NCBI GenBank assembly: GCA_000092065.1
Contig: CP000582.1
Source of the DNA: Ostreococcus lucimarinus
Lineage: Eukaryota
Reading direction: 5' to 3' (one strand)
DNA: 64,000 bases
The notes beneath the pieces were generated by a model. That model was not told where the DNA came from. It did no database searches and saw only the letters and a program-made list of their open reading frames with translations. The position numbers were made by a program, and so were the translations under genes. Positions 40,101-62,800 of the stretch are shown piece after piece (the stretch's first letter is position 1; every line of letters begins with the position of its first letter).

Positions 40101-43100
40101 CGGCGTCGTGGAGGGGGATATCAGGGTCAACATCGAAACCAATCAATGTGCAAACCATCTTATGAAGTAAACTCAGACAGTCCTGGGTGGTGTGACACCG
40201 CACGCCTGACGTAGTAAACTTTTTCTGACGCTCTAGCGTTGTTTGTTTATCAGCAATTTTCCGAGTGTGCACACTTTGCAAGCCGGTCGTATGTTTCTCA
40301 AGTAGCCAATCAGCCTTCGTCGAGTCACTGGTGAATGCGTTCTGGCATACGACGAGCACTGCGCCACATGATAGAGGTGCATTTTCTATTCTGCGCATGG
40401 TACTTTTCAGCGCAGCGAGGGCAGTCTTTGGGTCCATGAAGCCAACTCCTAGACGCGACATATTTCGTTCTATGTACTTATTACGGATCGCCATTCCGAC
40501 CTTCCCCCAGGCGCCCCATTGAACGCTGCACACAGGGCGACCAGCTGTGTGCTCAAATTGAGCGAGAGTATCCAAGGCAGAATTTGCGCATGAATAATTT
40601 GCCTGTCCTGGTGAACCTATTCGTGCCGTTATGGAAGAAAAGAAAATGGCGCTTAAAAGCGGTTTGCTTGAGTATAGATCAGCGTCAATGGTGAGAACTT
40701 TAGGAGCAAAGACTTCACGAATGCGTGCTGGCGTTTGTCGCAGAAGCAAGGCATCCGATGTACAACCTGCCGCATGCACGAGTCGAATTGAAGAGCACTT
40801 ATCAGTGAGCATGCAGTTATGGTTATGTGTTCGCCAGACATACATGAAACACTCAATGTAAAACGTCCGCTCATGCACGTAAATCTGAGATTTGCCTGAA
40901 CGATTCGGTAACTTGATGCATTGCATCTTCGTACGGATCAGCCTTCCAATGCCCCCGGACCCTCCTATTATCGTAAGTTGCTCTGTTTTTTTACCTTTCT
41001 CGTCACTTAAGCGCAGATATAAGGCTGAAGGTACGGTTTTATCGAAAAATTTGTGTTGATCTACGTATGAGTTTGACGGAACTATATTCTCTTGCACCGC
41101 TACCTTGCAAATTTGATGCAGCTGTTTGGTAGCGTTTGTACAATGAATGAGCTCGATGTGTCGACGCATTAGGCTTGTAAGTAAGGCGATATCGGCTGCA
41201 ACCTGCATCACTGAACATGCTTGTATTTTCCTTGGAACGGGTTCAAAGTCTGCATCTTGACATTCATAGAAAATTGTGATATTCTGGATTTTGCAGGGCG
41301 CTTTGCACGTTAAGCTACTAGCTTTGAACTGGGAATCGAAACCTAAAAGTTTGTCTAAACTCATACTGCAACCTGAGATTGTGTAACTTCCGACTGTTTT
41401 CACCTTGGAAACAGACTCAAAGATGGAGACACCACAACTAGCAAACCAACGCAATCCCTTGATCGCAATCTTCTGTGATACTGCGTCACCGATTACAGCA
41501 TTGACTGCTATTATGAAGGCTGCGGATGTGTTCGAAAGACTAGCTGCATTGTGATGAAGATCATAGGAACTGATAGAATGCGTGACGACATGCACATTTG
41601 AGCGGAGAAGAGGCGCGATTGTGGGCGAATCGAACTGCTTCATACTTGTATCGCACTTCTTGGATGCATGCTTTATCCTTGCACGACAATGCTCACCTTG
41701 TGAAGTTTCCACTTTGATCGCACCGGTTATGGCGCGGACAGAAACTTCTATACGTTGGTGGTACTGCAAAAGTAATGGCCTCACAATCGCAAGATCTTGA
41801 ACCATTGCAGTGTGTAAATCAAATGTACCGCACGCTTGAGCCATGTAATCTATGTACCCAGCCGCTGGAAATAACGGTTTTCCATGGATGCAATGGTCCG
41901 ACAGCGCTGGTGTCGGCTGATGGAGGCGCGAAACAATCGAATTGTGGCACACTTTTATCGACGCACCCGAGCTGTGCACTGGAGATGCAAACCAGCACTG
42001 ATTGCAGGAGAATAGCTTGGATGCGACACTATTGCAAGAACAGCCAGAATTTCGTGCTGTCGCCGATAATATCGCGTGAGCGTTTGTACCTTGAAATGCA
42101 AACGAGCTCGTTCCCGTCTTCGCATTTGCTTTATGCACATGCTGGCACGAAGCAGAAGCAGATCGCGGCACAGCAACGTTTGGCTCTTGAGAGGGATTTA
42201 TTGACATTGCGTGCCACGCATGTACGTTGAGTAAGCGCATGTGCATTATGCCAGTGTGTCTTTGCATTTCTACGGCACGTGATGCACTTATGAGCCCCGC
42301 CATACCGGCAGCACATTCAGCGTGCCCCATGTTCGTTTTGATTGCATGCAATCGTAAAGTTTCTGCCTGACCCAAAACAGACATCGCGCCTCCTACTTCT
42401 ATGGGGTCACCAAGTGGCGTCCCAGTTCCATGCATTTCAAGGGCCCGCACTTCTAATGGCCGAGTCGAAGCGTTTGCCAGGGCTGATTTGATGACTCTGG
42501 TCTGCGATGGTCCATTTGGCGCCGTCAACGAGCTCGTTCGACCGTCTTGATTTACTGCGGTCCCACACAGCCACACGCTCTCGCTATTGACATTCGCGGT
42601 TGGACTCAGTAATAATGTATCACAGCTTTCGGCTCGCACGTAACCATCCGCGGCCGCATCGAGCGTCTTGCAGCGGCCATCAGGCGCTAGCATACCAGCG
42701 CGTAGAAACATGGCCGTCGTAGTCTCGGTGAGGATGAGGTTCACGCCACCCGTTACAGTTGAGTCGCACTCACTCTGAAATACAGATGCCACACCGAGAT
42801 GGACTGCCACAAGGGACGAGGAGCAGGCAGTGTCGATACTCATCGCCGATCCTGTGAGATCGAATGTGAAGCATATCCGTCCAGAAGCGACACTCAACGC
42901 TTGTGATGTAGCATCTAGTGCACTTGCGGGGACACTTGTGGTTGTGCGCATGACCTCACCATACTCCATCCAAGCGATTCCAATAAACACAGAAGTGTGA
43001 GATATTGTGTATTTCGGTAGACATAGCGAGCTCACGCAGTGTAGTAGCAGACGCTGCTGTGGGTCCATGCTGATCGCCTCTGCTTTTCCAATTCGGAAAC

Positions 43101-46100
43101 CTTGCCAGTCGAACATCACGATGCTTTCAACGAAGCAGCCCACTTTTAAACGTGGGTCGCTTTCTCCAAGTTCATCCGACAAAATGCGCCGTGCTGTTGG
43201 CATGAGGGCAATACTGTCGCAGTTTGCGACGCCCGCTGCCCCATGTGAAGTTCCAGATGACACAGCAAGCACACACTGAAGGTTGGGTTGCACAAATGGT
43301 GCGTTTTGTGGTGAACGACACAGTGCTTCTATCCCGTGCGCTTCGTCACAGCTGTGTTCAACATTTTGCATTAAATATGTGCACAATTTTGAAATGGTGG
43401 GGAAGTCAAATACCAAAGATGGTGCTACTTGCCTGTCGAAGTGTGTCGATATTTTACTGGCTAACTCAATCGCAGATAAAGAATCCAAGCCGGCGTCGTG
43501 GAGGGGGATATCAGGGTCAACATCGAAACCAATCAATGTGCAAACCATCTTATGAAGTAAACTCAGACAGTCCTGGGTGGTGTGACACCGCACGCCTGAC
43601 GTAGTAAACTTTTTCTGACGCTCTAGCGTTGTTTGTTTATCAGCAATTTTCCGAGTGTGCACACTTTGCAAGCCGGTCGTATGTTTCTCAAGTAGCCAAT
43701 CAGCCTTCGTCGAGTCACTGGTGAATGCGTTCTGGCATACGACGAGCACTGCGCCACATGATAGAGGTGCATTTTCTATTCTGCGCATGGTACTTTTCAG
43801 CGCAGCGAGGGCAGTCTTTGGGTCCATGAAGCCAACTCCTAGACGCGACATATTTCGTTCTATGTACTTATTACGGATCGCCATTCCGACCTTCCCCCAG
43901 GCGCCCCATTGAACGCTGCACACAGGGCGACCAGCTGTGTGCTCAAATTGAGCGAGAGTATCCAAGGCAGAATTTGCGCATGAATAATTTGCCTGTCCTG
44001 GTGAACCTATTCGTGCCGTTATGGAAGAAAAGAAAATGGCGCTTAAAAGCGGTTTGCTTGAGTATAGATCAGCGTCAATGGTGAGAACTTTAGGAGCAAA
44101 GACTTCACGAATGCGTGCTGGCGTTTGTCGCAGAAGCAAGGCATCCGATGTACAACCTGCCGCATGAATAAAGCATAATGAATCCACAGCGTATCGATTT
44201 ATCTGTATATTAGTGTGTACGTAGGATTGTACAAACGACACAACGCTGTCACTGTACTGATGCTGTCTTAGCATACAGTTTGTTCGTCCAAAGCGACTCA
44301 TTAGTGTATGTGGTGAGCTGTACCTCATTAGGAAAGTACTAGTGAGTTGCCCTGTAGCTCCTGTTCCTCCCATGATGAAGTAAGACCGATTAAGATCGCA
44401 GGAGGCTATGAATTCACTTTTGTTACGATCGAGCTTGATCTTATGTATTTTGCGATTAGAGCACGCCAACTGTTGAGCAAGAGATTCTTTTAGGCACCGG
44501 TGCAATACATGAAATTTTCTCAGACTTTTGTATTGCGTAAAAGCCTGTAGTAGGATGCTAGAGTGTTGAAACGGCGCATCTTCACCCCGTACAACTAGGG
44601 AAACATTTTCTTTGATGCATTCAGTCTCAGCGCATCGGAACAGTGATGCAAGATACTTGATGGAATTCGTCTCACATAGCTCAACTCGACCTTCCATTTG
44701 CAGCACATAGGCGTGCAATACCATCACCGCATGAGCGACTATTTTTTCACGCATCAGTGATATAAATCGCGCGTGTGCTTGAGTGGTACAAGGTCTTAAG
44801 CTTGTGCTTGGTGAAAATCTTGACACGTACTTGACAATATTGATTCCATTGCTCAAATTATTTTTATGTGGATACCCATTTGCCTTTGTGCGTAGCATTT
44901 TGCATTTCACTTTGAATAACACCACGCAGCCAACCAGATGATTGCCAAGACTCTCACCATGGCTGTCCAATTCAATGTTACAGCGCGTACTTATGCGCCG
45001 CACTGACGTGATCTCAGGAGGAGATGTGCTACAAAACTTTATTATGGTCGGCAGCATCGTCACACACTTTGATACTTTCTGTCCATCTATGACTCCCACA
45101 CTGATCTGCAGAGTCGCGTCAATAATTGAGGGCACATGGCCTGATGTGAAGTTTGTTGATGCAGTCTCAACATGAGCGAGTGCAATGTTCAACCGACGCC
45201 CACTGTCGAAGATCGGGCTCAATGTCTGCGAAGAGAAAACATAAAGTGTGTTGTGTCTATCGCACTTCTTGGATGCATGCTTTATCCTTGCACGACAATG
45301 CTCACCTTGTGAAGTTTCCACTTTGATCGCACCGGTTATGGCGCGGACAGAAACTTCTATACGTTGGTGGTACTGCAAAAGTAATGGCCTCACAATCGCA
45401 AGATCTTGAACCATTGCAGTGTGTAAATCAAATGTACCGCACGCTTGAGCCATGTAATCTATGTACCCAGCCGCTGGAAATAACGGTTTTCCATGGATGC
45501 AATGGTCCGACAGCGCTGGTGTCGGCTGATGGAGGCGCGAAACAATCGAATTGTGGCACACTTTTATCGACGCACCCGAGCTGTGCACTGGAGATGCAAA
45601 CCAGCACTGATTGCAGGAGAATAGCTTGGATGCGACACTATTGCAAGAACAGCCAGAATTTCGTGCTGTCGCCGATAATATCGCGTGAGCGTTTGTACCT
45701 TGAAATGCAAACGAGCTCGTTCCCGTCTTCGCATTTGCTTTATGCACATGCTGGCACGAAGCAGAAGCAGATCGCGGCACAGCAACGTTTGGCTCTTGAG
45801 AGGGATTTATTGACATTGCGTGCCACGCATGTACGTTGAGTAAGCGCATGTGCATTATGCCAGTGTGTCTTTGCATTTCTACGGCACGTGATGCACTTAT
45901 GAGCCCCGCCATACCGGCAGCACATTCAGCGTGCCCCATGTTCGTTTTGATTGCATGCAATCGTAAAGTTTCTGCCTGACCCAAAACAGACATCGCGCCT
46001 CCTACTTCTATGGGGTCACCAAGTGGCGTCCCAGTTCCATGCATTTCAAGGGCCCGCACTTCTAATGGCCGAGTCGAAGCGTTTGCCAGGGCTGATTTGA

Positions 46101-49100
46101 TGACTCTGGTCTGCGATGGTCCATTTGGCGCCGTCAACGAGCTCGTTCGACCGTCTTGATTTACTGCGGTCCCACACAGCCACACGCTCTCGCTATTGAC
46201 ATTCGCGGTTGGACTCAGTAATAATGTATCACAGCTTTCGGCTCGCACGTAACCATCCGCGGCCGCATCGAGCGTCTTGCAGCGGCCATCAGGCGCTAGC
46301 ATACCAGCGCGTAGAAACATGGCCGTCGTAGTCTCGGTGAGGATGAGGTTCACGCCACCCGTTACAGTTGAGTCGCACTCACTCTGAAATACAGATGCCA
46401 CACCGAGATGGACTGCCACAAGGGACGAGGAGCAGGCAGTGTCGATACTCATCGCCGATCCTGTGAGATCGAATGTGAAGCATATCCGTCCAGAAGCGAC
46501 ACTCAACGCTTGTGATGTAGCATCTAGTGCACTTGCGGGGACACTTGTGGTTGTGCGCATGACCTCACCATACTCCATCCAAGCGATTCCAATAAACACA
46601 GAAGTGTGAGATATTGTGTATTTCGGTAGACATAGCGAGCTCACGCAGTGTAGTAGCAGACGCTGCTGTGGGTCCATGCTGATCGCCTCTGCTTTTCCAA
46701 TTCGGAAACCTTGCCAGTCGAACATCACGATGCTTTCAACGAAGCAGCCCACTTTTAAACGTGGGTCGCTTTCTCCAAGTTCATCCGACAAAATGCGCCG
46801 TGCTGTTGGCATGAGGGCAATACTGTCGCAGTTTGCGACGCCCGCTGCCCCATGTGAAGTTCCAGATGACACAGCAAGCACACACTGAAGGTTGGGTTGC
46901 ACAAATGGTGCGTTTTGTGGTGAACGACACAGTGCTTCTATCCCGTGCGCTTCGTCACAGCTGTGTTCAACATTTTGCATTAAATATGTGCACAATTTTG
47001 AAATGGTGGGGAAGTCAAATACCAAAGATGGTGCTACTTGCCTGTCGAAGTGTGTCGATATTTTACTGGCTAACTCAATCGCAGATAAAGAATCCAAGCC
47101 GGCGTCGTGGAGGGGGATATCAGGGTCAACATCGAAACCAATCAATGTGCAAACCATCTTATGAAGTAAACTCAGACAGTCCTGGGTGGTGTGACACCGC
47201 ACGCCTGACGTAGTAAACTTTTTCTGACGCTCTAGCGTTGTTTGTTTATCAGCAATTTTCCGAGTGTGCACACTTTGCAAGCCGGTCGTATGTTTCTCAA
47301 GTAGCCAATCAGCCTTCGTCGAGTCACTGGTGAATGCGTTCTGGCATACGACGAGCACTGCGCCACATGATAGAGGTGCATTTTCTATTCTGCGCATGGT
47401 ACTTTTCAGCGCAGCGAGGGCAGTCTTTGGGTCCATGAAGCCAACTCCTAGACGCGACATATTTCGTTCTATGTACTTATTACGGATCGCCATTCCGACC
47501 TTCCCCCAGGCGCCCCATTGAACGCTGCACACAGGGCGACCAGCTGTGTGCTCAAATTGAGCGAGAGTATCCAAGGCAGAATTTGCGCATGAATAATTTG
47601 CCTGTCCTGGTGAACCTATTCGTGCCGTTATGGAAGAAAAGAAAATGGCGCTTAAAAGCGGTTTGCTTGAGTATAGATCAGCGTCAATGGTGAGAACTTT
47701 AGGAGCAAAGACTTCACGAATGCGTGCTGGCGTTTGTCGCAGAAGCAAGGCATCCGATGTACAACCTGCCGCATGAATAAAGCATAATGAATCCACAGCG
47801 TATCGATTTATCTGTATATTAGTGTGTACGTAGGATTGTACAAACGACACAACGCTGTCACTGTACTGATGCTGTCTTAGCATACAGTTTGTTCGTCCAA
47901 AGCGACTCATTAGTGTATGTGGTGAGCTGTACCTCATTAGGAAAGTACTAGTGAGTTGCCCTGTAGCTCCTGTTCCTCCCATGATGAAGTAAGACCGATT
48001 AAGATCGCAGGAGGCTATGAATTCACTTTTGTTACGATCGAGCTTGATCTTATGTATTTTGCGATTAGAGCACGCCAACTGTTGAGCAAGAGATTCTTTC
48101 AGGCACCGGTGCAATACATGAAATTTTCTCAGACTTTTGTATTGCGTAAAAGCCTGTAGTAGGATGCTAGAGTGTTGAAACGGCGCATCTTCACCCCGTA
48201 CAACTAGGGAAACATTTTCTTTGATGCATTCAGTCTCAGCGCATCGGAACAGTGATGCAAGATACTTGATGGAATTCGTCTCACATAGCTCAACTCGACC
48301 TTCCATTTGCAGCACATAGGCGTGCAATACCATCACCGCATGAGCGACTATTTTTTCACGCATCAGTGATATAAATCGCGCGTGTGCTTGAGTGGTACAA
48401 GGTCTTAAGCTTGTGCTTGGTGAAAATCTTGACACGTACTTGACAATATTGATTCCATTGCTCAAATTATTTTTATGTGGATACCCATTTGCCTTTGTGC
48501 GTAGCATTTTGCATTTCACTTTGAATAACACCACGCAGCCAACCAGATGATTGCCAAGACTCTCACCATGGCTGTCCAATTCAATGTTACAGCGCGTACT
48601 TATGCGCCGCACTGACGTGATCTCAGGAGGAGATGTGCTACAAAACTTTATTATGGTCGGCAGCATCGTCACACACTTTGATACTTTCTGTCCATCTATG
48701 ACTCCCACACTGATCTGCAGAGTCGCGTCAATAATTGAGGGCACATGGCCTGATGTGAAGTTTGTTGATGCAGTCTCAACATGAGCGAGTGCAATGTTCA
48801 ACCGACGCCCACTGTCGAAGATCGGGCTCAATGTCTGCGAAGAGAAAACATAAAGTGTGTTGTGTCTATCGCACTTCTTGGATGCATGCTTTATCCTTGC
48901 ACGACAATGCTCACCTTGTGAAGTTTCCACTTTGATCGCACCGGTTATGGCGCGGACAGAAACTTCTATACGTTGGTGGTACTGCAAAAGTAATGGCCTC
49001 ACAATCGCAAGATCTTGAACCATTGCAGTGTGTAAATCAAATGTACCGCACGCTTGAGCCATGTAATCTATGTACCCAGCCGCTGGAAATAACGGTTTTC

Positions 49101-52100
49101 CATGGATGCAATGGTCCGACAGCACTGGTGTCGGCTGATGGAGGCGCGAAACAATCGAATTGTGGCACACTTTTATCGACGCACCCGAGCTGTGCACTGG
49201 AGATGCAAACCAGCACTGATTGCAGGAGAATAGCTTGGATGCGACACTATTGCAAGAACAGCCAGAATTTCGTGCTGTCGCCGATAATATCGCGTGAGCG
49301 TTTGTACCTTGAAATGCAAACGAGCTCGTTCCCGTCTTCGCATTTGCTTTATGCACATGCTGGCACGAAGCAGAAGCAGATCGCGGCACAGCAACGTTTG
49401 GCTCTTGAGAGGGATTTATTGACATTGCGTGCCACGCATGTACGTTGAGTAAGCGCATGTGCATTATGCCAGTGTGTCTTTGCATTTCTACGGCACGTGA
49501 TGCACTTATGAGCCCCGCCATACCGGCAGCACATTCAGCGTGCCCCATGTTCGTTTTGATTGCATGCAATCGTAAAGTTTCTGCCTGACCCAAAACAGAC
49601 ATCGCGCCTCCTACTTCTATGGGGTCACCAAGTGGCGTCCCAGTTCCATGCATTTCAAGGGCCCGCACTTCTAATGGCCGAGTCGAAGCGTTTGCCAGGG
49701 CTGATTTGATGACTCTGGTCTGCGATGGTCCATTTGGCGCCGTCAACGAGCTCGTTCGACCGTCTTGATTTACTGCGGTCCCACACAGCCACACGCTCTC
49801 GCTATTGACATTCGCGGTTGGACTCAGTAATAATGTATCACAGCTTTCGGCTCGCACGTAACCATCCGCGGCCGCATCGAGCGTCTTGCAGCGGCCATCA
49901 GGCGCTAGCATACCAGCGCGTAGAAACATGGCCGTCGTAGTCTCGGTGAGGATGAGGTTCACGCCACCCGTTACAGTTGAGTCGCACTCACTCTGAAATA
50001 CAGATGCCACACCGAGATGGACTGCCACAAGGGACGAGGAGCAGGCAGTGTCGATACTCATCGCCGGTCCTGTGAGATCGAATGTGAAGCATATCCGTCC
50101 AGAAGCGACACTCAACGCTTGTGATGTAGCATCTAGTGCACTTGCGGGGACACTTGTGGTTGTGCGCATGACCTCACCATACTCCATCCAAGCGATTCCA
50201 ATAAACACAGAAGTGTGAGATATTGTGTATTTCGGTAGACATAGCGAGCTCACGCAGTGTAGTAGCAGACGCTGCTGTGGGTCCATGCTGATCGCTTCTG
50301 CTTTTCCAATTCGGAAACCTTGCCAATCAAAGTTCGACACGTTTCTCAGTTTCCACATCGCGCACGACAAGTTTTCATCAAAGTGATAATAATGATCTGT
50401 TTCGAGAAGCTGTGTCAATTGAGTAGAAACCAGCACGTGTGTTCGCGTAGCTAACAAAAATAGATGATTCTCAGAGTGTTGACGCAATTCGTGTTCAACT
50501 GTCGCGTTCTGTGTCGTCTCCGTAGACTGTCTATATGTTGACTGATCCGTGTTCGTAATAAACGCTGTGATGTCATTGACCGTAGGATAGTCATACAGAA
50601 ATGTTGTCGGTAAGTCAATCTGGAAATACTCACTCATTTCAGCGATTATCACTACTGTCTGTGCTGAAGAAAGTCCCAGTGAATGTATAATCGGCTCATA
50701 CACACATTCAAGTGGAGAAAGTGAATGTGCGCAGCTTTGCAAAGCCTGTAGAACAAGCCATTTATCGTGCTTCTCAACACACTTTTTGGGATGTTTGCCG
50801 GAGAAAGCGCATGTCTGGTTATTTTGATTCGAAGACAGTCGATGTGACGATGGCATTCCAAACAGAAGCACGTCACAAAGAGACGTGACCTGCTCTTTTG
50901 CAATATTGTTATCTTCAACAGTTGGTGCGAGGTCTATATCGCTTCGATATCTTTGTTCGGCAAGCCGAGCACACGGGTACAGTATCGTACCATCGAAAGT
51001 ATCATGCATGTTAGTAACATCTCGTGAATCACTTTTTACGAGTTGGTATGGAGTTCCCGAACAGTTGAAAAAATCCGTCCTCTGTTGAAAGTCTCGCATT
51101 AATGCAAACTTGGAAGCGACTAGCATTTTACCATAATGAAATGGGAGGGTAACAAGTATTGGGCACAGTTTATTGATTTTGGTTTTCGTATCAATCAAGT
51201 CAGTTTGTCTCTCTGCTTCAGCCTCGGCGACGAGAAAAAATATCGAAATACCAGTTGTTGACCCTCCCAGTATGAAACTATCATTATCATTCTCGAGAAG
51301 GAGTCTTATGCGCTCAGCTGGATAAAGCTGTGTATTCAGTCGTTCCACGAATTCAGCCACTTTTGCACGAGTCCATCCACGAAACGCGAACATGTGCACG
51401 CGATTGCAAAGTGACTGATTTCTCAAATCGTTGTCACAAAATACAGTCATATGCCTGACCGTGGACTTTGCCCGAATGGATAACCATAGAAGAAACTTTG
51501 CAATTAATATAGGATACGCCCAGTGCATCCAAGAGTAAGTGAACTTTGCACCAGTCGAAAAAATATTTGAAGAAACTTCCTGTGAGATCCAGCCTTGCGA
51601 GTGCCCGATACTATGGTAGAAAGGTTGAATCTTTCGAAAGAGCAACTTGGAGCTTTTGAGAAACGTACTGAAGTGTACTATGTAGGTCAGTGAAGATGAT
51701 ATCGACGACTCCGCAAATTTATCAATCAATCTTACTTTCATCGGAATTGATTTTGAATAGCATTGTATTCGAATGTGATAGGCATCTGAATTATCGATCG
51801 AGGTTTCATCCAACGCACTGAGACCTTGGCCAGCAAAATTGAATGCATATTCCGTTGACCGTGGCGCAATCTTCGAAACATTATACGAAAAATGCGGTCT
51901 GCGAAGAAGCAGAGATCCATGTCGATAAACTGTTGGATCAAACCGTCTTCTACTCCGCGCCTGTTGAAATAGTTTTGCAGTATGCAAGGTTTCCTCAGGG
52001 CACTTTCCATAACTTTGCATTGAAGCAAAGTAATAGAAGGAGCTCAAATCAACGTCATGATCGAATGCGTCAGTCTGAACACTAAAAAGCTCATCGAAAA

Positions 52101-52257: not shown

Positions 52258-52513
52258 GACCGCCTGTTGATAATCGTAGGAAATTTTTTACACAAGTGAC
52301 GCGATATGGTGCGATGCGATCTGGCGCGCATAGTACGTTTCTGTACTTGTGTAGCATAACGATGTGACAACTGTGCTACTTGATAGGAAATACTTCGGAA
52401 GTACGTAAGCGGGCGAAACTTTTATAGTTCGTGTGTGCCTTAGGAAGCATATTGTCTGCAAGGAAATGATTTAATGTGCTCGTTTTACACTATCTATACC
52501 AAGTAAATGCTAT

Positions 52514-55258
52514 CTAGTCGTAGGTCTTCTTCAGATAGCTGATGATATCGACACTCTCGAATAACGAGATCCCGGTGTTCGGATCTTCAAGATAAGGTAC
52601 TTGAAATATACCGGTGCGATTGAGAAGCAAACTCCTTCTTGGGCTACCGCGTGCACATGGACGAAAAACATAAGAAATTCCCCGCTCGTTCAGAGCTTTT
52701 CGCACTAGAGCGCAAAATGGAGAAGCTTCGTAACCCCAAAAAATCAAAGGCTGCTCACCTGCACGTGAAGTACGCCGATGCGAAGCATCATTGATCTTTG
52801 ACGCTTGAGCGAACCTCTGAAACAATGAGACAAGAGAAGCTGGTTCTTCGCCATCCAGATACTCCTGATAGAGATACTGAATGATGCCGTCAGCACCTTT
52901 CACAGCGATGTCGTCGTTTCGATCATCTCGTAGGAAAGGGACTACTTCAGACCCAAGTTCAACACCCTGTAGAATCGCTAACTCGGAGCTATTCGAACAC
53001 GACGCGGTAGGACACGGTTTGCACAAGTAACTCACGTCACAAATACTCAAAACCTCTCGTACAAGCCGACAGGAGTCGTCATCCTCGACGTCATAAAGTG
53101 TCAGCGTTGGTGGAGCTGGCGTAGCGTCGGCACGTTCTTTGACTGCCTCTCTCAGACGGTGGCTACCAAGCTTGCTGACCTCCAAAAACCGTAGTCCAGC
53201 GCCTCTCACGAAAGCGTACTCTGTAACGTTTTCACGCGCGATGCGTGGGGACCAACCGTGTACAAACAGACCCAAAGCAACTCGAGAGAGCCCTTTCCAA
53301 ACAGCCTCGAGAAGCTCTCCTCGCTGCGACTGTTCGAAGGCAAACATCTTTGGCTCATTAACTTGAAAATTCGCACTGAGTGCTTCAAATGCTACTGCTG
53401 TGTCTTCAAATGTTGCACCTGGGTATTTTAGATCCGCCCGCCACATGCAATGAGCCCCATATGGCACTCTTTCGGGCAGAAGAATTGTTGCTACGGGACC
53501 AGCCTCTACATCTTGTGCATCAATTATGACGCACTCGGTGCGCCCATTAACGTCTGTTGCTGTATAGCTCTCATCATGAACGTACATAACTAACCAGCCA
53601 TCATCTTCATCTACACCTCCTGGTCTTCCAACAAACTGGGCTTCCATACCGTAACGGTTTGGACCATGCTCATAAGTGACCGTCTTCTGCTCTTGCATAT
53701 CAATTTTCACGACTGCGTCAAACTTGAGCTGAGTGGTCGATTCCAACTCTGACAAAAGGACTCGCCCGGCGTAGGCGTACCTGTTTCGCCTTCCAACAAA
53801 TGCGTCGTTGATGCGTGGGGTTTCTAAAGGAATACTAAATAGATATCTTTCTGTGACCTTTCCAGTGACAAGATTTATTCTCCATTCATGAACTTTTGGA
53901 ATCTTGCCAACTCGCACGGCCTCTTTGATCCACTCACTTGAACCGTTAGCGCGCATCGCCTCTTGGAAAAAGCCGTCTTCACGAATTCCAGTAATGACTA
54001 TCAACTGCTCATTCCTTTCATTTTTTTCCTCCCACGAATTGATGAAGTGGTATACCATTTGTGACGAGCTACAATTAAACCAAGTCACGCTTGTTGACTG
54101 TGCATCTCTATTCAACACTCCAAAACGCGCCCGCTTGTCTTCGTTATACTGAAGAGGGTGTTTCCCTAGCAACTGTCGAACAGGCTTGATATCCATGCTG
54201 CCTTCAAAAAGAACCGTAAAATGCTCAGTTACACAGAAATCGTGCATGAAAATGCTACCAACAAACGGGATAGACCAAAGCGAGTTGATGCTCGAGATTG
54301 TACCATCTGGCTTCAACGTACCCACAGAGCAATGTGGCGGTGAGACTGGATTGAAACCAAAGAAAATAAGTTCACCGGTTGACGGTAACACTTTTGGATG
54401 CGCAGTGAAAGGAACGTAAGGAGGTAGTTTGCCATCAAACGTACATGCTGAAATTGTTTCGAGGGTATCTGGATCAAGTTCCCAAGGCGGACAGGTATCC
54501 TGTAGCGCGAACGTCCTACCAGCAAAATGGAGAAGCGCCGTATTTGCACTGTCTTTCATAAACATTCCACCCGTGATGAGGTTGGAAAGTGCATTTGCCA
54601 GAAATGTTCCACCGTCAGCATTCATGAGTGGTCTAAATATGCGTTTTCCGCTTTCAATCTCACGCTTCCAGCTAGACGTCCGAATAAAACGATTTCTAAA
54701 TTTAACTCTGTTGCCAGTGCAAAAGTCTACAGCGTAGATCATACCATCACCCTCGAACCAATGATGCCAGCCTGATCCTAAACCAAAATCTACTTGCCCT
54801 GGACCTGCACCCCAACGCTTGTAGTGATCAACAGCAAACTTTGGATTGGGGCCTACGTACGCGTACTGACCGAGTGGAAAATCGCTTGGAATTTTACCGT
54901 TAATTTTCATCGTCGAAGAATCATCACCAGCTTGCGCATCATAATCGCAACAGGCCGTGACTTCCTGTCCTACCGGATAATAGTTTCCAGAAAGAAAAGC
55001 GGCACCATGTTCGCCGTATTCCACTGGATCTAGAAGTTGATACGACGTAGAAGCGGCGGCAGAAATATAGCCTGTATCCTCATCACTCGAAGGCTGAATT
55101 GAATCTATTTCTTGGATCGTTCTCGTAGACAAATCTGTTTCCGTTTGTACTCGAAGTATAGAGGACACACGCCTTGTCTGCAAACTAAGAAGACAGCTCT
55201 TGCGGCGGTATGTTTTATAGTAGCGCACAGGAGCGTTGTGTGCCGATAGTGAGCCCAT
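52514..55258 (-). CDS. Carotenoid cleavage dioxygenase (RPE65/CCD family) fused to two C-terminal glutaredoxin/GST-N-like thioredoxin-fold domains; 914 aa, intronless
   Basis: Single ORF in the track. CCD His motifs: HWFEGDGMIYAVDF, FTAHPKVLPSTGELIFFG, FMHDFCVTEHFTV, PYGAHCMW. The C-terminus reads ASPFCALVRKALNERGISYVF...IFQVPYLEDPNTGISLFESVDIISYL, a CPFC-type site plus a cis-Pro and ES..I..YL. The N-terminus is basic and hydroxyl-rich, consistent with a transit peptide. Confidence 0.8.
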   Translation of the reverse strand: MGSLSAHNAPVRYYKTYRRKSCLLSLQTRRVSSILRVQTETDLSTRTIQEIDSIQPSSDEDTGYISAAASTSYQLLDPVEYGEHGAAFLSGNYYPVGQEVTACCDYDAQAGDDSSTMKINGKIPSDFPLGQYAYVGPNPKFAVDHYKRWGAGPGQVDFGLGSGWHHWFEGDGMIYAVDFCTGNRVKFRNRFIRTSSWKREIESGKRIFRPLMNADGGTFLANALSNLITGGMFMKDSANTALLHFAGRTFALQDTCPPWELDPDTLETISACTFDGKLPPYVPFTAHPKVLPSTGELIFFGFNPVSPPHCSVGTLKPDGTISSINSLWSIPFVGSIFMHDFCVTEHFTVLFEGSMDIKPVRQLLGKHPLQYNEDKRARFGVLNRDAQSTSVTWFNCSSSQMVYHFINSWEEKNERNEQLIVITGIREDGFFQEAMRANGSSEWIKEAVRVGKIPKVHEWRINLVTGKVTERYLFSIPLETPRINDAFVGRRNRYAYAGRVLLSELESTTQLKFDAVVKIDMQEQKTVTYEHGPNRYGMEAQFVGRPGGVDEDDGWLVMYVHDESYTATDVNGRTECVIIDAQDVEAGPVATILLPERVPYGAHCMWRADLKYPGATFEDTAVAFEALSANFQVNEPKMFAFEQSQRGELLEAVWKGLSRVALGLFVHGWSPRIARENVTEYAFVRGAGLRFLEVSKLGSHRLREAVKERADATPAPPTLTLYDVEDDDSCRLVREVLSICDVSYLCKPCPTASCSNSSELAILQGVELGSEVVPFLRDDRNDDIAVKGADGIIQYLYQEYLDGEEPASLVSLFQRFAQASKINDASHRRTSRAGEQPLIFWGYEASPFCALVRKALNERGISYVFRPCARGSPRRSLLLNRTGIFQVPYLEDPNTGISLFESVDIISYLKKTYD

Positions 55259-56016: not shown

Positions 56017-56862
56017 ATGCGTCCTTGCTCCTCCCAGCCACTTTCGAAACCGCCGTTTGGGAAGGACGGCTTTTCGAAATATTGGACAAAACATCGACCT
56101 TTGAAACTTCCAAAACGTGCTCGGCATGCATGTAGAGTGCTCAGCCCACTGGAGCGCTTAGAAGAACTCGGAACTCGACGTTTTGGTGTCATCTTTGAAC
56201 TTGAAGGTATTATAGTGCCCAGTTGTGCAAAAGCAGACCGAGAAGAGTGGCAACAGATAGCGCGTGAGGAAGGCCTCGAACAACCTGCTGAGTATCAACT
56301 CCGGGCGGCTCTTCGGAAGAAGACAGATCATGCGGTCTCTCGCGTATTCAACTGGGCATCCGAGCCACAGCAAGTGCGGTTCTTGACTCAGCGCAAAAGC
56401 GCACTTTTCTGCAAAAGAACGGAAACCACTGATCACAGAGCCCATGAGCATGTTCTAGCATTTTTGCGGCTACTCGATGGCTTCGACGTGCCCTGTGCTA
56501 TTTATTCTTCACAACTCTCGAGCGAAGAGCTAACAGTTTTGTTGCGTCGTTTGCAACTGACAGGGTACTTCAAGACGGAATCAGTGATAGGTCGTGACGA
56601 CGTACAAAGTGGCTTACCAGACACTGAATACTATTTAGTTGCAGCGCGTGCGCTTTTTCGACCGATCTCCAAATGTATTGTCATAAGTGACCACCACCTC
56701 GCAATCGAAGCTACGACTGAAATAGGAATGAAGTGTGTAATTGTCAATGGCGTCGACTCTACCTGGGAGTTGAGAGGTGCAAACATGGTTGTGCCGTCGT
56801 TAGAGTGGATATCGTTTAGGAACTTACAAAATATTTTTAGCTTAGATGTATACGAAAGTTAG
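56017..56862 (+). CDS. HAD-superfamily hydrolase-like protein (CbbY/beta-phosphoglucomutase-like); motif I is degenerate (FELEG rather than FDxDG)
   Basis: 281-aa ORF. GVIFELEGIIV at the motif I position and KCIVISDHHLAIEATTEIGMKCVIV resembling motif IV. Possible N-terminal presequence. Confidence 0.5.
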   Translation: MRPCSSQPLSKPPFGKDGFSKYWTKHRPLKLPKRARHACRVLSPLERLEELGTRRFGVIFELEGIIVPSCAKADREEWQQIAREEGLEQPAEYQLRAALRKKTDHAVSRVFNWASEPQQVRFLTQRKSALFCKRTETTDHRAHEHVLAFLRLLDGFDVPCAIYSSQLSSEELTVLLRRLQLTGYFKTESVIGRDDVQSGLPDTEYYLVAARALFRPISKCIVISDHHLAIEATTEIGMKCVIVNGVDSTWELRGANMVVPSLEWISFRNLQNIFSLDVYES

Positions 56863-59890: not shown

Positions 59891-62800
59891 GTTGTACTAG
59901 GGATTTCGAAAATAATGTATGAGGGTAAAATAGTGAATTTAATTAACCTCGACGTCTTGTCGCGCCGCTTCGCGCCGCGCGCGCGTCCGGGCGGCGCGGA
60001 GTCTACCGATCTTTCCGCGTATCGTGATATCCGACCGTTTAAGTTTGAATTCTGTGCGTGGGTGTTGACGGAACACGACCGTTGGAGCTCGATGGGCACG
60101 TTAACTTTTGGGCCAGATTCTGTCGCGTATGACGCCCCCTCGCGCGCGCCGAAGCGCGTCTCCGACCGTGTCGACGGCACGGAAAGGTTGTAAGAAGGCT
60201 TCTCAGCGATCTTCAGCCTCGCTGGGAGGAGCAGGGTCAACGACGGCTCCCGCTTGCGACGACGAAGATGGGCGCGCTCAAGTGGCCAAAGATGCTCGTG
60301 AGGTCGCCGTTTCTTTGCTCGCGAACAAACGTCGCCGGGAGGTTTCTGGCCAGGTAATGGCAAAAGTGACAGCTACGACGTTATTCCTCGACACCGTGAG
60401 CTTCAAAACAGAGTTGATAAAACAACACGCGTTCCTGAACCGCGTGAGGAAGCTGCTGAAAGACAAGGATGTGAAGCGAGACGCGCGCGCGTTGGTCACT
60501 GAAGAGTGCGCTTCGACATCAGATCAGTCCGAAAACACTGTGCACGTCACCGCTGATGTCGCACGCACACGCCGTGAAGAGCGGAGCCGAAATCCGCACC
60601 CCTTCTACGTCGAAGTAGTGCATGCATTAAGTCGCGGGGACATCTCGGCGACGCAGGCTGTCCATGAGTTGCAGCAGGTTGGCGTACGAGTCACCAAAGC
60701 GTTTTTGAAACGCGTGTGCACGGCTCAGTCGTTCCGGGATGACATTCCCCATTACTCCGAGTGCGAAGACGGCCGCGGCAGACCAAGTGCACTCAGCAAC
60801 GCATACTTGGACCAGCTCGCAAAAATTGTGAAGCATTACATTCGAGTTGGGATATCACTGAGTCAAGAGACGATTTTGTCGATGGCTAAAAACTTCTATC
60901 GCGACGAGCATCACGCAGATCCTTCTGATAAAACGTTCGGATCCGCGTGGTTCTATCGATTTCTCAATCGCCATGGCATTGACACTTCTCTGTACAATCC
61001 CCAGGATGCCTTGAGACTCAACGCCGCAACGGAGCACAACGTCAGCAATTACTACCAGCGCGTGGCCCAAACAGCAGTCAGTAATGGCTTCGCGACATGG
61101 AATGCCGACTTCGACGCGAACGATAGGAGTAGTGAGATGATCATTTGGAACGAAGAAAAGAAGAGCCGCGTGTTCACGTTCGACGAGGCGAAGGTGATGC
61201 TTGCCTATGAGAAAGGCGTGCGCGGAGTGAGAATGTTGGTCATCAAGGGCGAAGACAACCGCAGATCGGCTGTCACAGCGAACGATGCATTCGCAGCATC
61301 CGTCATGGGATGTAGAAACCTCGCTGGCGAGTCCTTGGCGCCTTACTTTGTGTGCACGACGCAGCCAAATGTCGAAGATGGTTTTGAAATCCCTGGAACT
61401 ATCACCGATACGACGACGGGTGCGTGCCAACAAGCCCAATGGATACGAGGAACGAAGAAGGGTTCATTCGACGGATTCGCATTCGCGACTTGGCTGAAGG
61501 ATCATCTCGCGCCGTGTGTTCCCGATTTGTCGCCGGAGAATCCGGCCATGGTGATTTGTGACGGATGTTATGCTCACACAGTCGACGAGGTGCTTGAGAT
61601 TTGTGCAGCAATGGGGATTCTCATGGTCATTCTGCCGCCTCATTGCACGCATATCCTGCAAGGCGAAGATTTGTACCACTTTGGTGTGTTTAAAGGTGCG
61701 TTTCGCGTCGAGCGTGCTGAAATCGAAGCGATGAAACAACTCGCCGCCGCGTGGTTCATCAAGCTCTTCGAGAACGGCGTCGCTACTTCTTTCGGACAGC
61801 GAGAGTTTTGGTACGCGGTTAAGGAGGCATGGAAAGGCGCTTGGACGAAACAGGCTGTCGAGAAAGGATTTAAAATGCAAGGATTGGTCCCTTTTAATCG
61901 AGCTCCACTCTGGAAAAACTTCCCGAACCATGAACGCAAGGAGCCGCAGCGCTCGACACCGGACAAGGAATCTCAAGTTGAAGCTGCCGAGCGGTGCGTT
62001 GAGCGCATGTCCATACCAGGAGCGCCCGGACTGCGAGTTATCGCACAATCTAGCGACTCGACATTCGATGTGACGTTTGATGGTAGTCCAGAGTCGTTCG
62101 CACGGGCGCCCCTGAACATGATGAAGCTGGACGAAGTGTACAAGAGCCTTGTTGAAAATCCGAGTAACCATAGTATGAACGACGAGCACTTGAACGTTAT
62201 GAAGCAGCTCATTCTCGAAAAGCAAGAAAACATCACAAAGAACATCGTGACGACGACCCGGAAACAGAGAAGTACACGCAGACACGATCGCTATGATGAA
62301 GCGACTGCTCCAGCCATGGCCCGCCTGCTCGCCGCTCGACAGAAGAGAGAGAAAACGAAGAAGAGAACGCACGACGCAGCTCAAGATGGATGCGACGCTC
62401 GGTTCAAGGACAACACGGATGATATTCAATTTCTTGCGGCGCTTCATAAACGCCTGGACGACAACGGATCACTCGAGAAATCTCTTACAAGAGCTGAACT
62501 CATGAAGGTGATGCGCGCGAAGCGAATTCCACTGCCACAAGGACCGACCGCTGATATCTTGAGAGATAAGTTGAAAGAGGTTGACGAGCGGCTCTATGAA
62601 GCAAACATAGAATGTACAAGAGTTGCGAACGCGCGGTGGCCCAAAAGAGCACGTCACGCGTCGTCAGTCGACGATGCAAACGTAAGGTGCGAGGTGAAGT
62701 ACCATCCAAGTGGCGTCCGAGTACAACTTATAACGGACTAAAAGAACACGTGAAAGACTCGAACACACAACCGGGCTGCAAATATCGATAGAAAACACTA

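Follow-up and report, generated by a model that had tools for sequence, protein, structure and literature searches.

The 64,000-nucleotide stretch of Ostreococcus lucimarinus DNA analysed here (assembly GCA_000092065.1, contig CP000582.1; hereafter, the window) carries on its minus strand, at positions 52514–55258, an uninterrupted, ATG-started open reading frame (ORF) of 914 amino acids (aa). The ORF encodes a predicted carotenoid cleavage dioxygenase (CCD) fused to a C-terminal module with two folds of the glutathione S-transferase (GST) N-terminal type. An in-frame stop two codons 5′ of the ATG bounds the N-terminus (the stop-free frame comprises 916 codons), and the stop codon occupies 52514–52516. 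The original prediction, made by a model from the letters alone, had recognised this gene but placed it at 52258–55258; the lower of these coordinates is the end of the adjoining spacer, the gene itself ending at 52514.

The encoded protein is an exact match to O. lucimarinus CCE9901 XP_001416379.1/ABO94672.1, which bears the GenBank name “Carotenoid dioxygenase plastidic fusion protein, putative”. Both the gene model and its “fusion protein” label became public when the O. lucimarinus genome was annotated. New are the assignment of the fusion partner to the At5g03880/At4g10000 family, the finding that its two domains have decayed unequally and a partial microsynteny with a giant polyketide synthase (PKS) gene. 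A literature search returned no study analysing this fusion or its function and none on algal dioxygenase fusions.

As detailed below, the fusion gene specifies a single polypeptide of three parts: a basic disordered presequence, a complete dioxygenase and a module of ~280 aa with two GST N-terminal (GST-N) folds. By analogy with O. tauri, the record that carries the gene (895,087 bp) is taken to be chromosome 2. The window has a GC content of 44–54%, as would suit a low-GC outlier region. In a 2026 preprint, the low-GC portion of chromosome 2 (“BOC1”) is described as intron-rich and as housing structurally variable giant PKS genes (10.1101/2025.04.21.649811).

Distribution of the Fusion

A word-indexed search retrieved 34 full-length, colinear fusion clusters with 42–93% identity, O. 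lucimarinus, O. tauri and O. mediterraneus being among their members. The O. tauri ortholog (XP_003074820.2) is 66% identical, has the same layout and is annotated as “Thioredoxin-like fold”; its contig, CAID01000002.2 (1.07 Mb), is taken to be O. tauri chromosome 2. In O. mediterraneus, a transcriptome ORF marked complete encodes the whole fusion. The fusion is genuine, expressed and conserved. The original prediction had allowed for a mis-joined pair of genes. This and an assembly artefact are ruled out by the single ORF, by its colinearity in the 34 clusters and by the complete O. mediterraneus transcriptome ORF. Since the same architecture recurs in two finished Ostreococcus genomes, in one transcriptome ORF and in dozens of independent metagenome contigs, the chance that two neighbouring genes were wrongly read as one is negligible.

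Composition and length suggest that Micromonas- and Bathycoccus-like members are present among the other fusions. In a neighbour-joining tree, the fusions fall into three deep groups; the fusions of the O. lucimarinus/O. tauri group may be orthologs or else old paralogs of those in the O. mediterraneus group.

An exhaustive phmmer search of 1.84 billion representatives found only three 50%-identity representatives with both halves, after which the matches, now to the dioxygenase alone, drop to 35–39% identity. By these searches, the fusion architecture is confined to one Mamiellophyceae-like clade. Calling the fusion unusual was thus right as regards its distribution, but it is not a discovery, the GenBank name already reading “fusion”. 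Three seemingly “CCD-only” close relatives (P0037, P0038 and P0331) proved to be frameshifted GC-rich fusions with Arg/Ala/Pro-rich out-of-frame tails, and the shorter close relatives of this kind look truncated. We therefore reject them as a sign that the fusion is optional.

No fusion in the opposite domain order was found in the exhaustive phmmer search, the long relatives having cyclic-nucleotide-binding domains or unannotated N-termini. P0397 and P0435 are among the nearest non-fusion relatives (35–39%), which include proteins with two N-terminal cyclic-nucleotide-binding domains before a complete RPE65 domain. This architecture represents a dioxygenase fusion of another, apparently regulatory, kind.

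The Presequence and the Dioxygenase Domain

Residues 1–72 of the fusion protein (55043–55258; all features of the fusion gene lie on the minus strand) are modelled as disordered by AlphaFold, with predicted local distance difference test (pLDDT) scores of 24–29. The first 40 residues include six Arg, two Lys, one acidic residue and nine Ser/Thr and have a net charge of +7. Across the 34 homologs, the presequence varies in length and sequence, and all have a non-conserved extension of similar character. Because composition and disorder both fit, we regard the presequence as a probable plastid transit peptide. A plastid location is also hinted at by the detection in chloroplasts of At5g03880, a stand-alone homolog of the module (see below), and by the word “plastidic” in the GenBank label. 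CCD1, the plant enzyme with which the dioxygenase is compared below, is cytosolic and is not known to have a presequence.

The dioxygenase domain spans aa 78–607 (53438–55027), its conserved N-terminal motif starting at about aa 78. Pfam RPE65 (PF03055) matches aa 116–607 with E=1.4e-107 and 361 bits against a cutoff of 27 bits, and the match covers profile positions 13–468 of 469. Functional residues were assigned by residue-level alignment to Synechocystis ACO and plant CCD1. The predicted Fe(II) ligands are H287 (in the motif AHP), H339 (HDF), H404 and H603, which correspond to ACO H183, H238, H304 and H484. D254, E479 and E539 take the places of the second-sphere carboxylates (ACO E150, E370 and E426), and T240 that of the occluding residue (ACO T136). 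All eight positions are invariant in the 34 homologs. The histidine of the motif WHHWFEGDGM was considered as an iron ligand and ruled out by the ACO alignment.

In the AlphaFold model, most 10-residue blocks of this domain have mean pLDDT values of 80–96, a few falling to 61–78. Foldseek matched the model to CCD1, VP14, ACO and lignostilbene dioxygenases with E values from 1e-35 to 1e-30 and target-normalised template modelling (TM) scores of 0.72–0.86; model and matches agree in a seven-bladed β-propeller. The best solved relative is plant CCD1 (Osmanthus fragrans, PDB 7VUD/9LUZ; E=3.5e-55, 27–30% identity, target-normalised TM score ~0.76). It shares with the fusion protein the four His ligands, the three second-sphere carboxylate positions and the propeller fold, whereas it is without a C-terminal extension and the fusion protein has Asp, not Glu, as the first second-sphere residue. 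ACO (PDB 2BIW) and maize VP14/NCED (PDB 3NPE), both single-domain enzymes, have the same fold and the same iron site at 24–27% identity. As to orthology with CCD1, this best solved match stands at 27–30%, the nearest non-fusion relatives being 35–39% identical.

The Asp at position 254 is clade-wide, “LQDT” being found in 34/34 fusions. This natural Asp corresponds to the engineered Glu150Asp substitution of ACO (5KJB), and the engineered chain is the best-scoring ACO sequence against the fusion protein, marginally above the wild type. Asp254 could be taken as a sign of an inactive enzyme; we reject this, since the residue is clade-invariant and the second-sphere carboxylates of the family are described as Glu/Asp (PMC12051055).

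The domain is thus predicted to be a complete CCD1/ACO-like non-heme Fe(II) dioxygenase. The original prediction of an intact His tetrad and a functional-looking enzyme agrees with the presence of every catalytic hallmark, function being predicted from sequence. Sequence scores are highest for CCD1 (191 bits), followed by ACO (146), VP14 (139) and the stilbene cleavers (~105–115), which places the dioxygenase, as judged by these scores, nearer to carotenoid/apocarotenoid cleavers than to stilbene cleavers. Because identity to any characterised dioxygenase is at most 30%, the substrate and the cleavage position cannot be assigned.

Two cysteines of the dioxygenase domain, C396 and C576, are invariant in the 34 fusion homologs, with no matching Cys in CCD1 or ACO as aligned here. 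C849 and C868, in the C-terminal module, are also invariant across the fusions.

The C-Terminal Module

The dioxygenase is followed by a flexible linker (aa 608–635; 53354–53437) that varies in sequence and length among homologs and has pLDDT values <50 at aa 620–628. The module proper begins with an N-terminal α/β subdomain (aa 636–711; 53126–53353), modelled as a helix, three strands and a helix at pLDDT 75–95 and marked by the motif R659..L664-F665..W669. R659, L664, F665, W669, Y681 and E693 are invariant in the fusions, and the subdomain shows homology to the N-terminal part of the mature stand-alone proteins from plants and algae described below.

The first thioredoxin/GST-N fold (domain 1; aa 716–800, 52859–53113) is degenerate, with DDSC in place of CPFC and Gly-Ala in place of Glu-Ser. 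It is modelled as a β-α-β-α-β-β-α fold; in a separate scan of aa 716–835, aa 719–800 match GST_N_3 with E=7e-4 and 20.3 bits, under the cutoff of 22 bits. An inter-domain linker (aa 801–836; 52751–52858), helical at aa 808–817 and with pLDDT <50 at aa 820–829, leads to the second fold (domain 2; aa 837–914, 52517–52750). Here, aa 838–913 match GST_N_3 with E=3e-15 and 56.7 bits against the same 22-bit cutoff, and GST_N_2 and GST_N match too. Domain 2 has the residues of a GST N-terminal domain (PF13417/PF13409/PF02798), namely Ser846 at the N-terminus of helix 1 (S846-P-F-C849), the cis-Pro motif Gln-Val-Pro (Q886-V-P888) and Glu901-Ser902, whereas domain 1 is without them.

The two C-terminal thioredoxin-fold modules of the original prediction are thus present, both modelled as GST-N type folds; thioredoxin-fold profile matches do exist in the last 250 aa, and the ASPFC motif ascribed to one of the two lies at aa 845–849, in domain 2. 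Of the label “glutaredoxin/GST-N-like”, the GST-N part holds and the glutaredoxin part does not, for the Pfam Glutaredoxin model (PF00462) scored 13.7–17.8 bits against a cutoff of 22.9 bits. The N-terminal active-site Cys is absent from both domains, which read DDSC (domain 1) and SPFC (domain 2). The Pfam scan gave no GST_C match at E≤1, and the polypeptide ends at aa 914, right after helix 3 of the second fold. The fusion protein in this way differs from canonical GSTs (tau, phi, theta and zeta) and from E. coli glutaredoxin 2: it is without the helical GST C-terminal domain.

When the last 303 aa were compared with a large protein collection, stand-alone homologs of ~335 aa were found with 97–99% query coverage, ~36% identity and E ~1e-45. 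The homology includes the 80 residues preceding the first thioredoxin fold. These stand-alone proteins come from land plants, Chlorella, Chloropicon, Nannochloropsis, Chromera, Vitrella, a glaucophyte and a euglenid; the Brassicaceae members (P0130–P0133) are ~335 aa long. The named matches are from lineages other than Mamiellophyceae, and P0204 resembles, by eye, the Chloropicon protein. The Arabidopsis match, P0137, is labelled “putative glutaredoxin-2, Thioredoxin-like superfamily”; we take it to be At5g03880, with At4g10000 as its paralog.

A model of the module based on 76 family members (pLDDT 88; predicted TM score 0.86) consists of the α/β subdomain and two β-α-β-α-β-β-α folds. Solved structures cover at most ~121 of the 303 module residues, and the tandem arrangement is without a solved counterpart. 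Fusion module and At5g03880/At4g10000 family have in common the N-terminal subdomain, the two GST-N folds and the domain 2 pattern SPFx...QVP...ES. As judged by this sequence homology, the module is no generic pair of glutaredoxins but a whole copy of the chloroplast At5g03880/At4g10000-type two-GST-N family. Chloroplast preparations have been found to contain At5g03880 (PMC7349189), which is highly connected, with seven edges, in a plastoglobule co-expression network (10.1101/2021.02.05.430006), while At4g10000 is, according to one paper, without a clear localisation or function. Our literature search for At5g03880/At4g10000 and for a CPFC/SPFC two-domain glutaredoxin returned no function, only proteome and co-expression mentions.

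The two-GST-N module is also widespread in Myxococcota, as proteins of ~230 aa with at least 593 genomic matches; domain 1 reads CPFC/CPYC in these proteins, domain 2 SP[FY]C. The phyletic pattern is odd: photosynthetic eukaryotes and myxobacteria, with no cyanobacterium among the named matches.

Motif Decay in the Fused Module

The Glu-Ser pair of GSTs and glutaredoxins binds the γ-glutamyl end of glutathione. We counted this and the other active-site motifs in an alignment of 76 family sequences, mostly stand-alone, and in the 34 fusions. In domain 1, CP[FY]C is present in 68/76 family members and in none of the 34 fusions (DDSC in the window protein), and Glu-Ser in 70/76 against 0/34, with Gly-Ala in its place in the window protein and in most fusions. 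Domain 2 has been kept: SPFC is found in 51/76 family members (SP[FY]x in 75/76) and in 34/34 fusions, Glu-Ser in 76/76 and 34/34, and Gln-Val-Pro in 67/76 and 34/34, all three being present in the window protein. Domain 1 thus contains CPFC and Glu-Ser in stand-alone At5g03880/At4g10000 members but neither of them in the fusions. Ostreococcus-type fusions read D/N-x-x-C at the former position, Micromonas-like ones C-G-x-C or C-G-x-S. From these motifs, only domain 2 still looks like a glutathione site, and one of the Ser type (tau, phi, theta and zeta GSTs), not of the Cys type.

Because domain 1 decays in the fusions yet is conserved in the free proteins, the role of the module would have changed once it was tethered. 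Its decay is the best evidence we have for a changed job of the module and argues against a retained, independent ancestral function.

It also bears on whether the module is a glutaredoxin-like sensor or maintenance device that does not act on the product of the dioxygenase at all. Such a device would keep dioxygenase cysteines or the Fe(II) site reduced, or would switch the enzyme with the plastid glutathione/redox state. The classic CPFC dithiol in domain 1 of the stand-alone family is in line with redox control, as are the CGxC or CGxS kept in domain 1 of Micromonas-like fusions and the invariant cysteines of the dioxygenase domain (C396 and C576) and of the module (C849 and C868). However, the N-terminal active-site Cys of domain 1 is Asp/Asn in the window protein and in all Ostreococcus-type fusions, where Glu-Ser is gone as well; the nucleophile position of domain 2 is occupied by Ser in place of Cys, which makes classical glutaredoxin chemistry unavailable; and the Glutaredoxin Pfam model stays below its cutoff. 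We therefore consider redox control unlikely.

Another way to account for the fusion is genome compaction: dioxygenase and At5g03880-type protein would do unrelated tasks in the plastid, and their joining would be a neutral accident that became fixed. Intergenic spacers at this locus are only ~250 bp, thioredoxin/GST-N folds are often fusion partners, no dioxygenase is found near the bacterial homologs of the module, and other dioxygenase relatives carry different extras (the two cyclic-nucleotide-binding domains). Yet the fusion has been kept across three deep groups with 42–66% identity to the window protein and zero unfused close relatives, and the loss of the domain 1 motifs in all fusions, with their retention in the stand-alone proteins, would not be expected if the original job had been retained. 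A neutral accident of this kind is, in our view, quite unlikely.

Proposed Function of the Fusion Protein

The reading that we favour, tentatively and without rating it as probable, is that the fusion protein acts in the plastid, cleaving a carotenoid or apocarotenoid with its dioxygenase and handing the reactive carbonyl product over to a tethered Ser-type glutathione site, domain 1 serving as scaffold. Plastid import and carotenoid/apocarotenoid cleavage are what we infer from family knowledge, whereas the coupling is suggested by the fusion itself and by the motif pattern.

CCD products are α,β-unsaturated carbonyls, and Ser-type GST N-domains activate the glutathione thiolate. The fusion protein would be imported into the plastid, where the dioxygenase would cut a carotenoid or apocarotenoid double bond and release a conjugated aldehyde or ketone. 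The tethered domain 2 would bind one glutathione and use it, Ser-type, on the electrophilic product, either by conjugation or by glutathione-dependent isomerisation or reduction. A scaffold role would fall to domain 1 and the N-terminal subdomain.

Several points weigh against this proposal. The literature search yielded no biochemical data for the fusion protein or for any At5g03880-family member. The conjugating activity is an assumption, since GST N-domains that lack the helical C-domain are not known to form a hydrophobic substrate site. The Ser846 site may or may not face the tunnel of the dioxygenase. Domains with a thioredoxin fold join many different fusion partners, and Ostreococcus genomes are compacted, a state in which gene fusions reportedly arise (Derelle et al. 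2006). Finally, no dioxygenase was found within 10 kb in 80 fetched Myxococcota loci carrying the module. With overlapping out-of-frame ORFs at the module gene set aside, no neighbour family occurred in more than 11 of these 80 loci; as regards the eukaryotic proteins, the neighbourhood test carries no information rather than counting against a link, and it provides no independent genomic support.

The At5g03880/At4g10000 family spans green algae, land plants and several secondary-plastid algae. A lineage-wide fusion is a “Rosetta stone” hint, which suggests that this family acts on, or with, carotenoid breakdown. A dioxygenase with a built-in glutathione site, if true, would have an accessory function not seen in the characterised members that we found, and such a site would bear on how cells handle reactive apocarotenoid aldehydes. 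Ostreococcus tauri has been reported to be genetically tractable.

The Neighbouring Polyketide Synthase Gene

Downstream of the fusion gene and co-oriented with it lies the 5′ end of a giant type I PKS gene (1–52257, minus strand) that runs off the window. Its frame is stop-free from 52287 to window base 1 and encodes at least 17,419 aa; the first ATG is at 52257, and acyl carrier protein and ketosynthase domains start at about aa 535. The spacer from the fusion stop to the PKS ATG (52258–52513, minus strand; GC 41%) is 256 bp long, so that the co-oriented adjacency of the original prediction stands and its 257 bp needs correcting.

The genomic surroundings of ten homologs were fetched. In four Ostreococcus lineages, the PKS 5′ end is directly downstream of the fusion gene and co-oriented, with spacers of 256 bp in O. 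lucimarinus, 267 bp in O. tauri, 232 bp in the P0005 lineage and 421 bp in the P0006 lineage. In the related loci, this 5′ end, including the unannotated first ~530 aa, is colinear and 27–43% identical. The upstream neighbours of the four PKS-adjacent loci are all different, and for the upstream genes of the window (HAD hydrolase, glucokinase and transposase) no homolog was found in any related locus. Since the upstream flanks all differ, the fusion–PKS pair has outlasted rearrangements on the other side. Five lineages that keep the fusion have no PKS downstream, and the fusion is equally conserved there. Downstream of the fusion, a protein kinase and a 2-oxoglutarate oxygenase are found in O. 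mediterraneus and in the P0014 lineage, housekeeping genes in the P0009 and P0020 lineages, and in the P0007 lineage, sister to P0006, no PKS start was found within the 1.1 kb downstream that was examined. The suggestion that the CCD may pair with the PKS is thus met by adjacency in four lineages and by its lack in five. The link between the two genes is positional only, and any specific chemistry of the fusion protein, with or without the PKS, is a proposal.

If the two did work together, dioxygenase and glutathione module could tailor or cleave a polyene/polyol product of the adjacent PKS, as a small cassette. An orthologous PKS 5′ end is directly downstream in four lineages in spite of differing upstream genes, and alkenes other than carotenoids, stilbenes for example, are also among the substrates of the dioxygenase family. 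We nevertheless hold a partnership with the PKS to be very unlikely, for the fusion is just as conserved in the five lineages without a PKS downstream, presequence and module ancestry point to the plastid, and the dioxygenase appears nearer in sequence to carotenoid/apocarotenoid cleavers than to stilbene cleavers. Moreover, a spacer of 250 bp leaves rearrangements little room to strike, which allows the two genes to stay adjacent by chance, and PKS genes are variable and even deleted among O. tauri strains (PMC5498103; 10.1101/2025.04.21.649811), whereas the fusion gene is stable. That fusion gene and PKS form a conserved two-gene cassette in a low-GC, mating-type-like region of chromosome 2 is highly doubtful; no less improbable is the chemistry that would go with it, in which the dioxygenase would cut or trim a long unsaturated polyketide instead of a carotenoid and the glutathione site would capture the reactive carbonyl end.

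A recognisable PKS loading domain that might accept an apocarotenoid was also considered and ruled out, the PKS N-terminus (first 540 aa; window 50638–52257, minus strand) having no Pfam or PDB sequence match. In conserved and colinear form, the first ~530 aa of the PKS recur in O. tauri and in two further Ostreococcus lineages; they represent a putative loading or docking region.

All fusion loci have a GC content of 45–50%, including those of O. mediterraneus and O. tauri. The genomes of these two species have ~60% GC overall. The fusion gene may be a long-standing resident of the low-GC outlier region. The neighbour-joining tree contains more deep lineages than there are named Ostreococcus species; together, low GC and the extra deep lineages would fit long residence in a candidate mating-type region with divergent haplotypes (PMC5498103).

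Within the PKS ORF, window positions 41649–50295 (minus strand) hold a tandem repeat that is almost perfect and has a 3609-bp period. The segments 41649–46686 and 45258–50295 are the same but for 3 mismatches in 5038 bp, which corresponds to ~2.4 copies of a module of 1203 aa close to the 5′ end of the PKS gene. The repeat is the product of either recent duplication or gene conversion, and it is a likely cause of assembly breaks in metagenome contigs.

In O. tauri (CAID01000002.2, 166–189 kb; locus L013), a called giant gene of 11,265 aa, seen at 71–1888 of the locus, is located upstream of the fusion gene and ends in a sulfotransferase domain (Sulfotransfer_3, E=5e-30). With this gene upstream and the PKS downstream, the O. 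tauri fusion gene is flanked by a giant gene on either side. Near 16.5–16.7 kb, the frame of the downstream PKS is interrupted.

Other Genes in the Window

On the other side of the fusion gene, 758 bp away and divergent from it, is a gene for a HAD-family hydrolase of 281 aa (56017–56862, plus strand; HAD_2, E=6e-10). It is followed by a bacterial-type glucokinase gene (PF02685; 56889–58044, minus strand) that is split into at least four pieces in different frames; when joined, the pieces match Pfam Glucokinase with E=4e-40. This splitting is the dense small-intron pattern reported for the low-GC chromosome 2 region. The contrast drawn at the outset between an intronless fusion gene and PKS, the latter as far as it lies within the window, and the intron-split glucokinase is borne out.

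A pogo/Tc5-type transposase gene is present at 60108–62741 on the plus strand. Its product comprises 877 aa counted from a TTG and has Tc5 DNA-binding and DDE_1 domains; an antisense ORF of 327 aa overlaps the transposase ORF.

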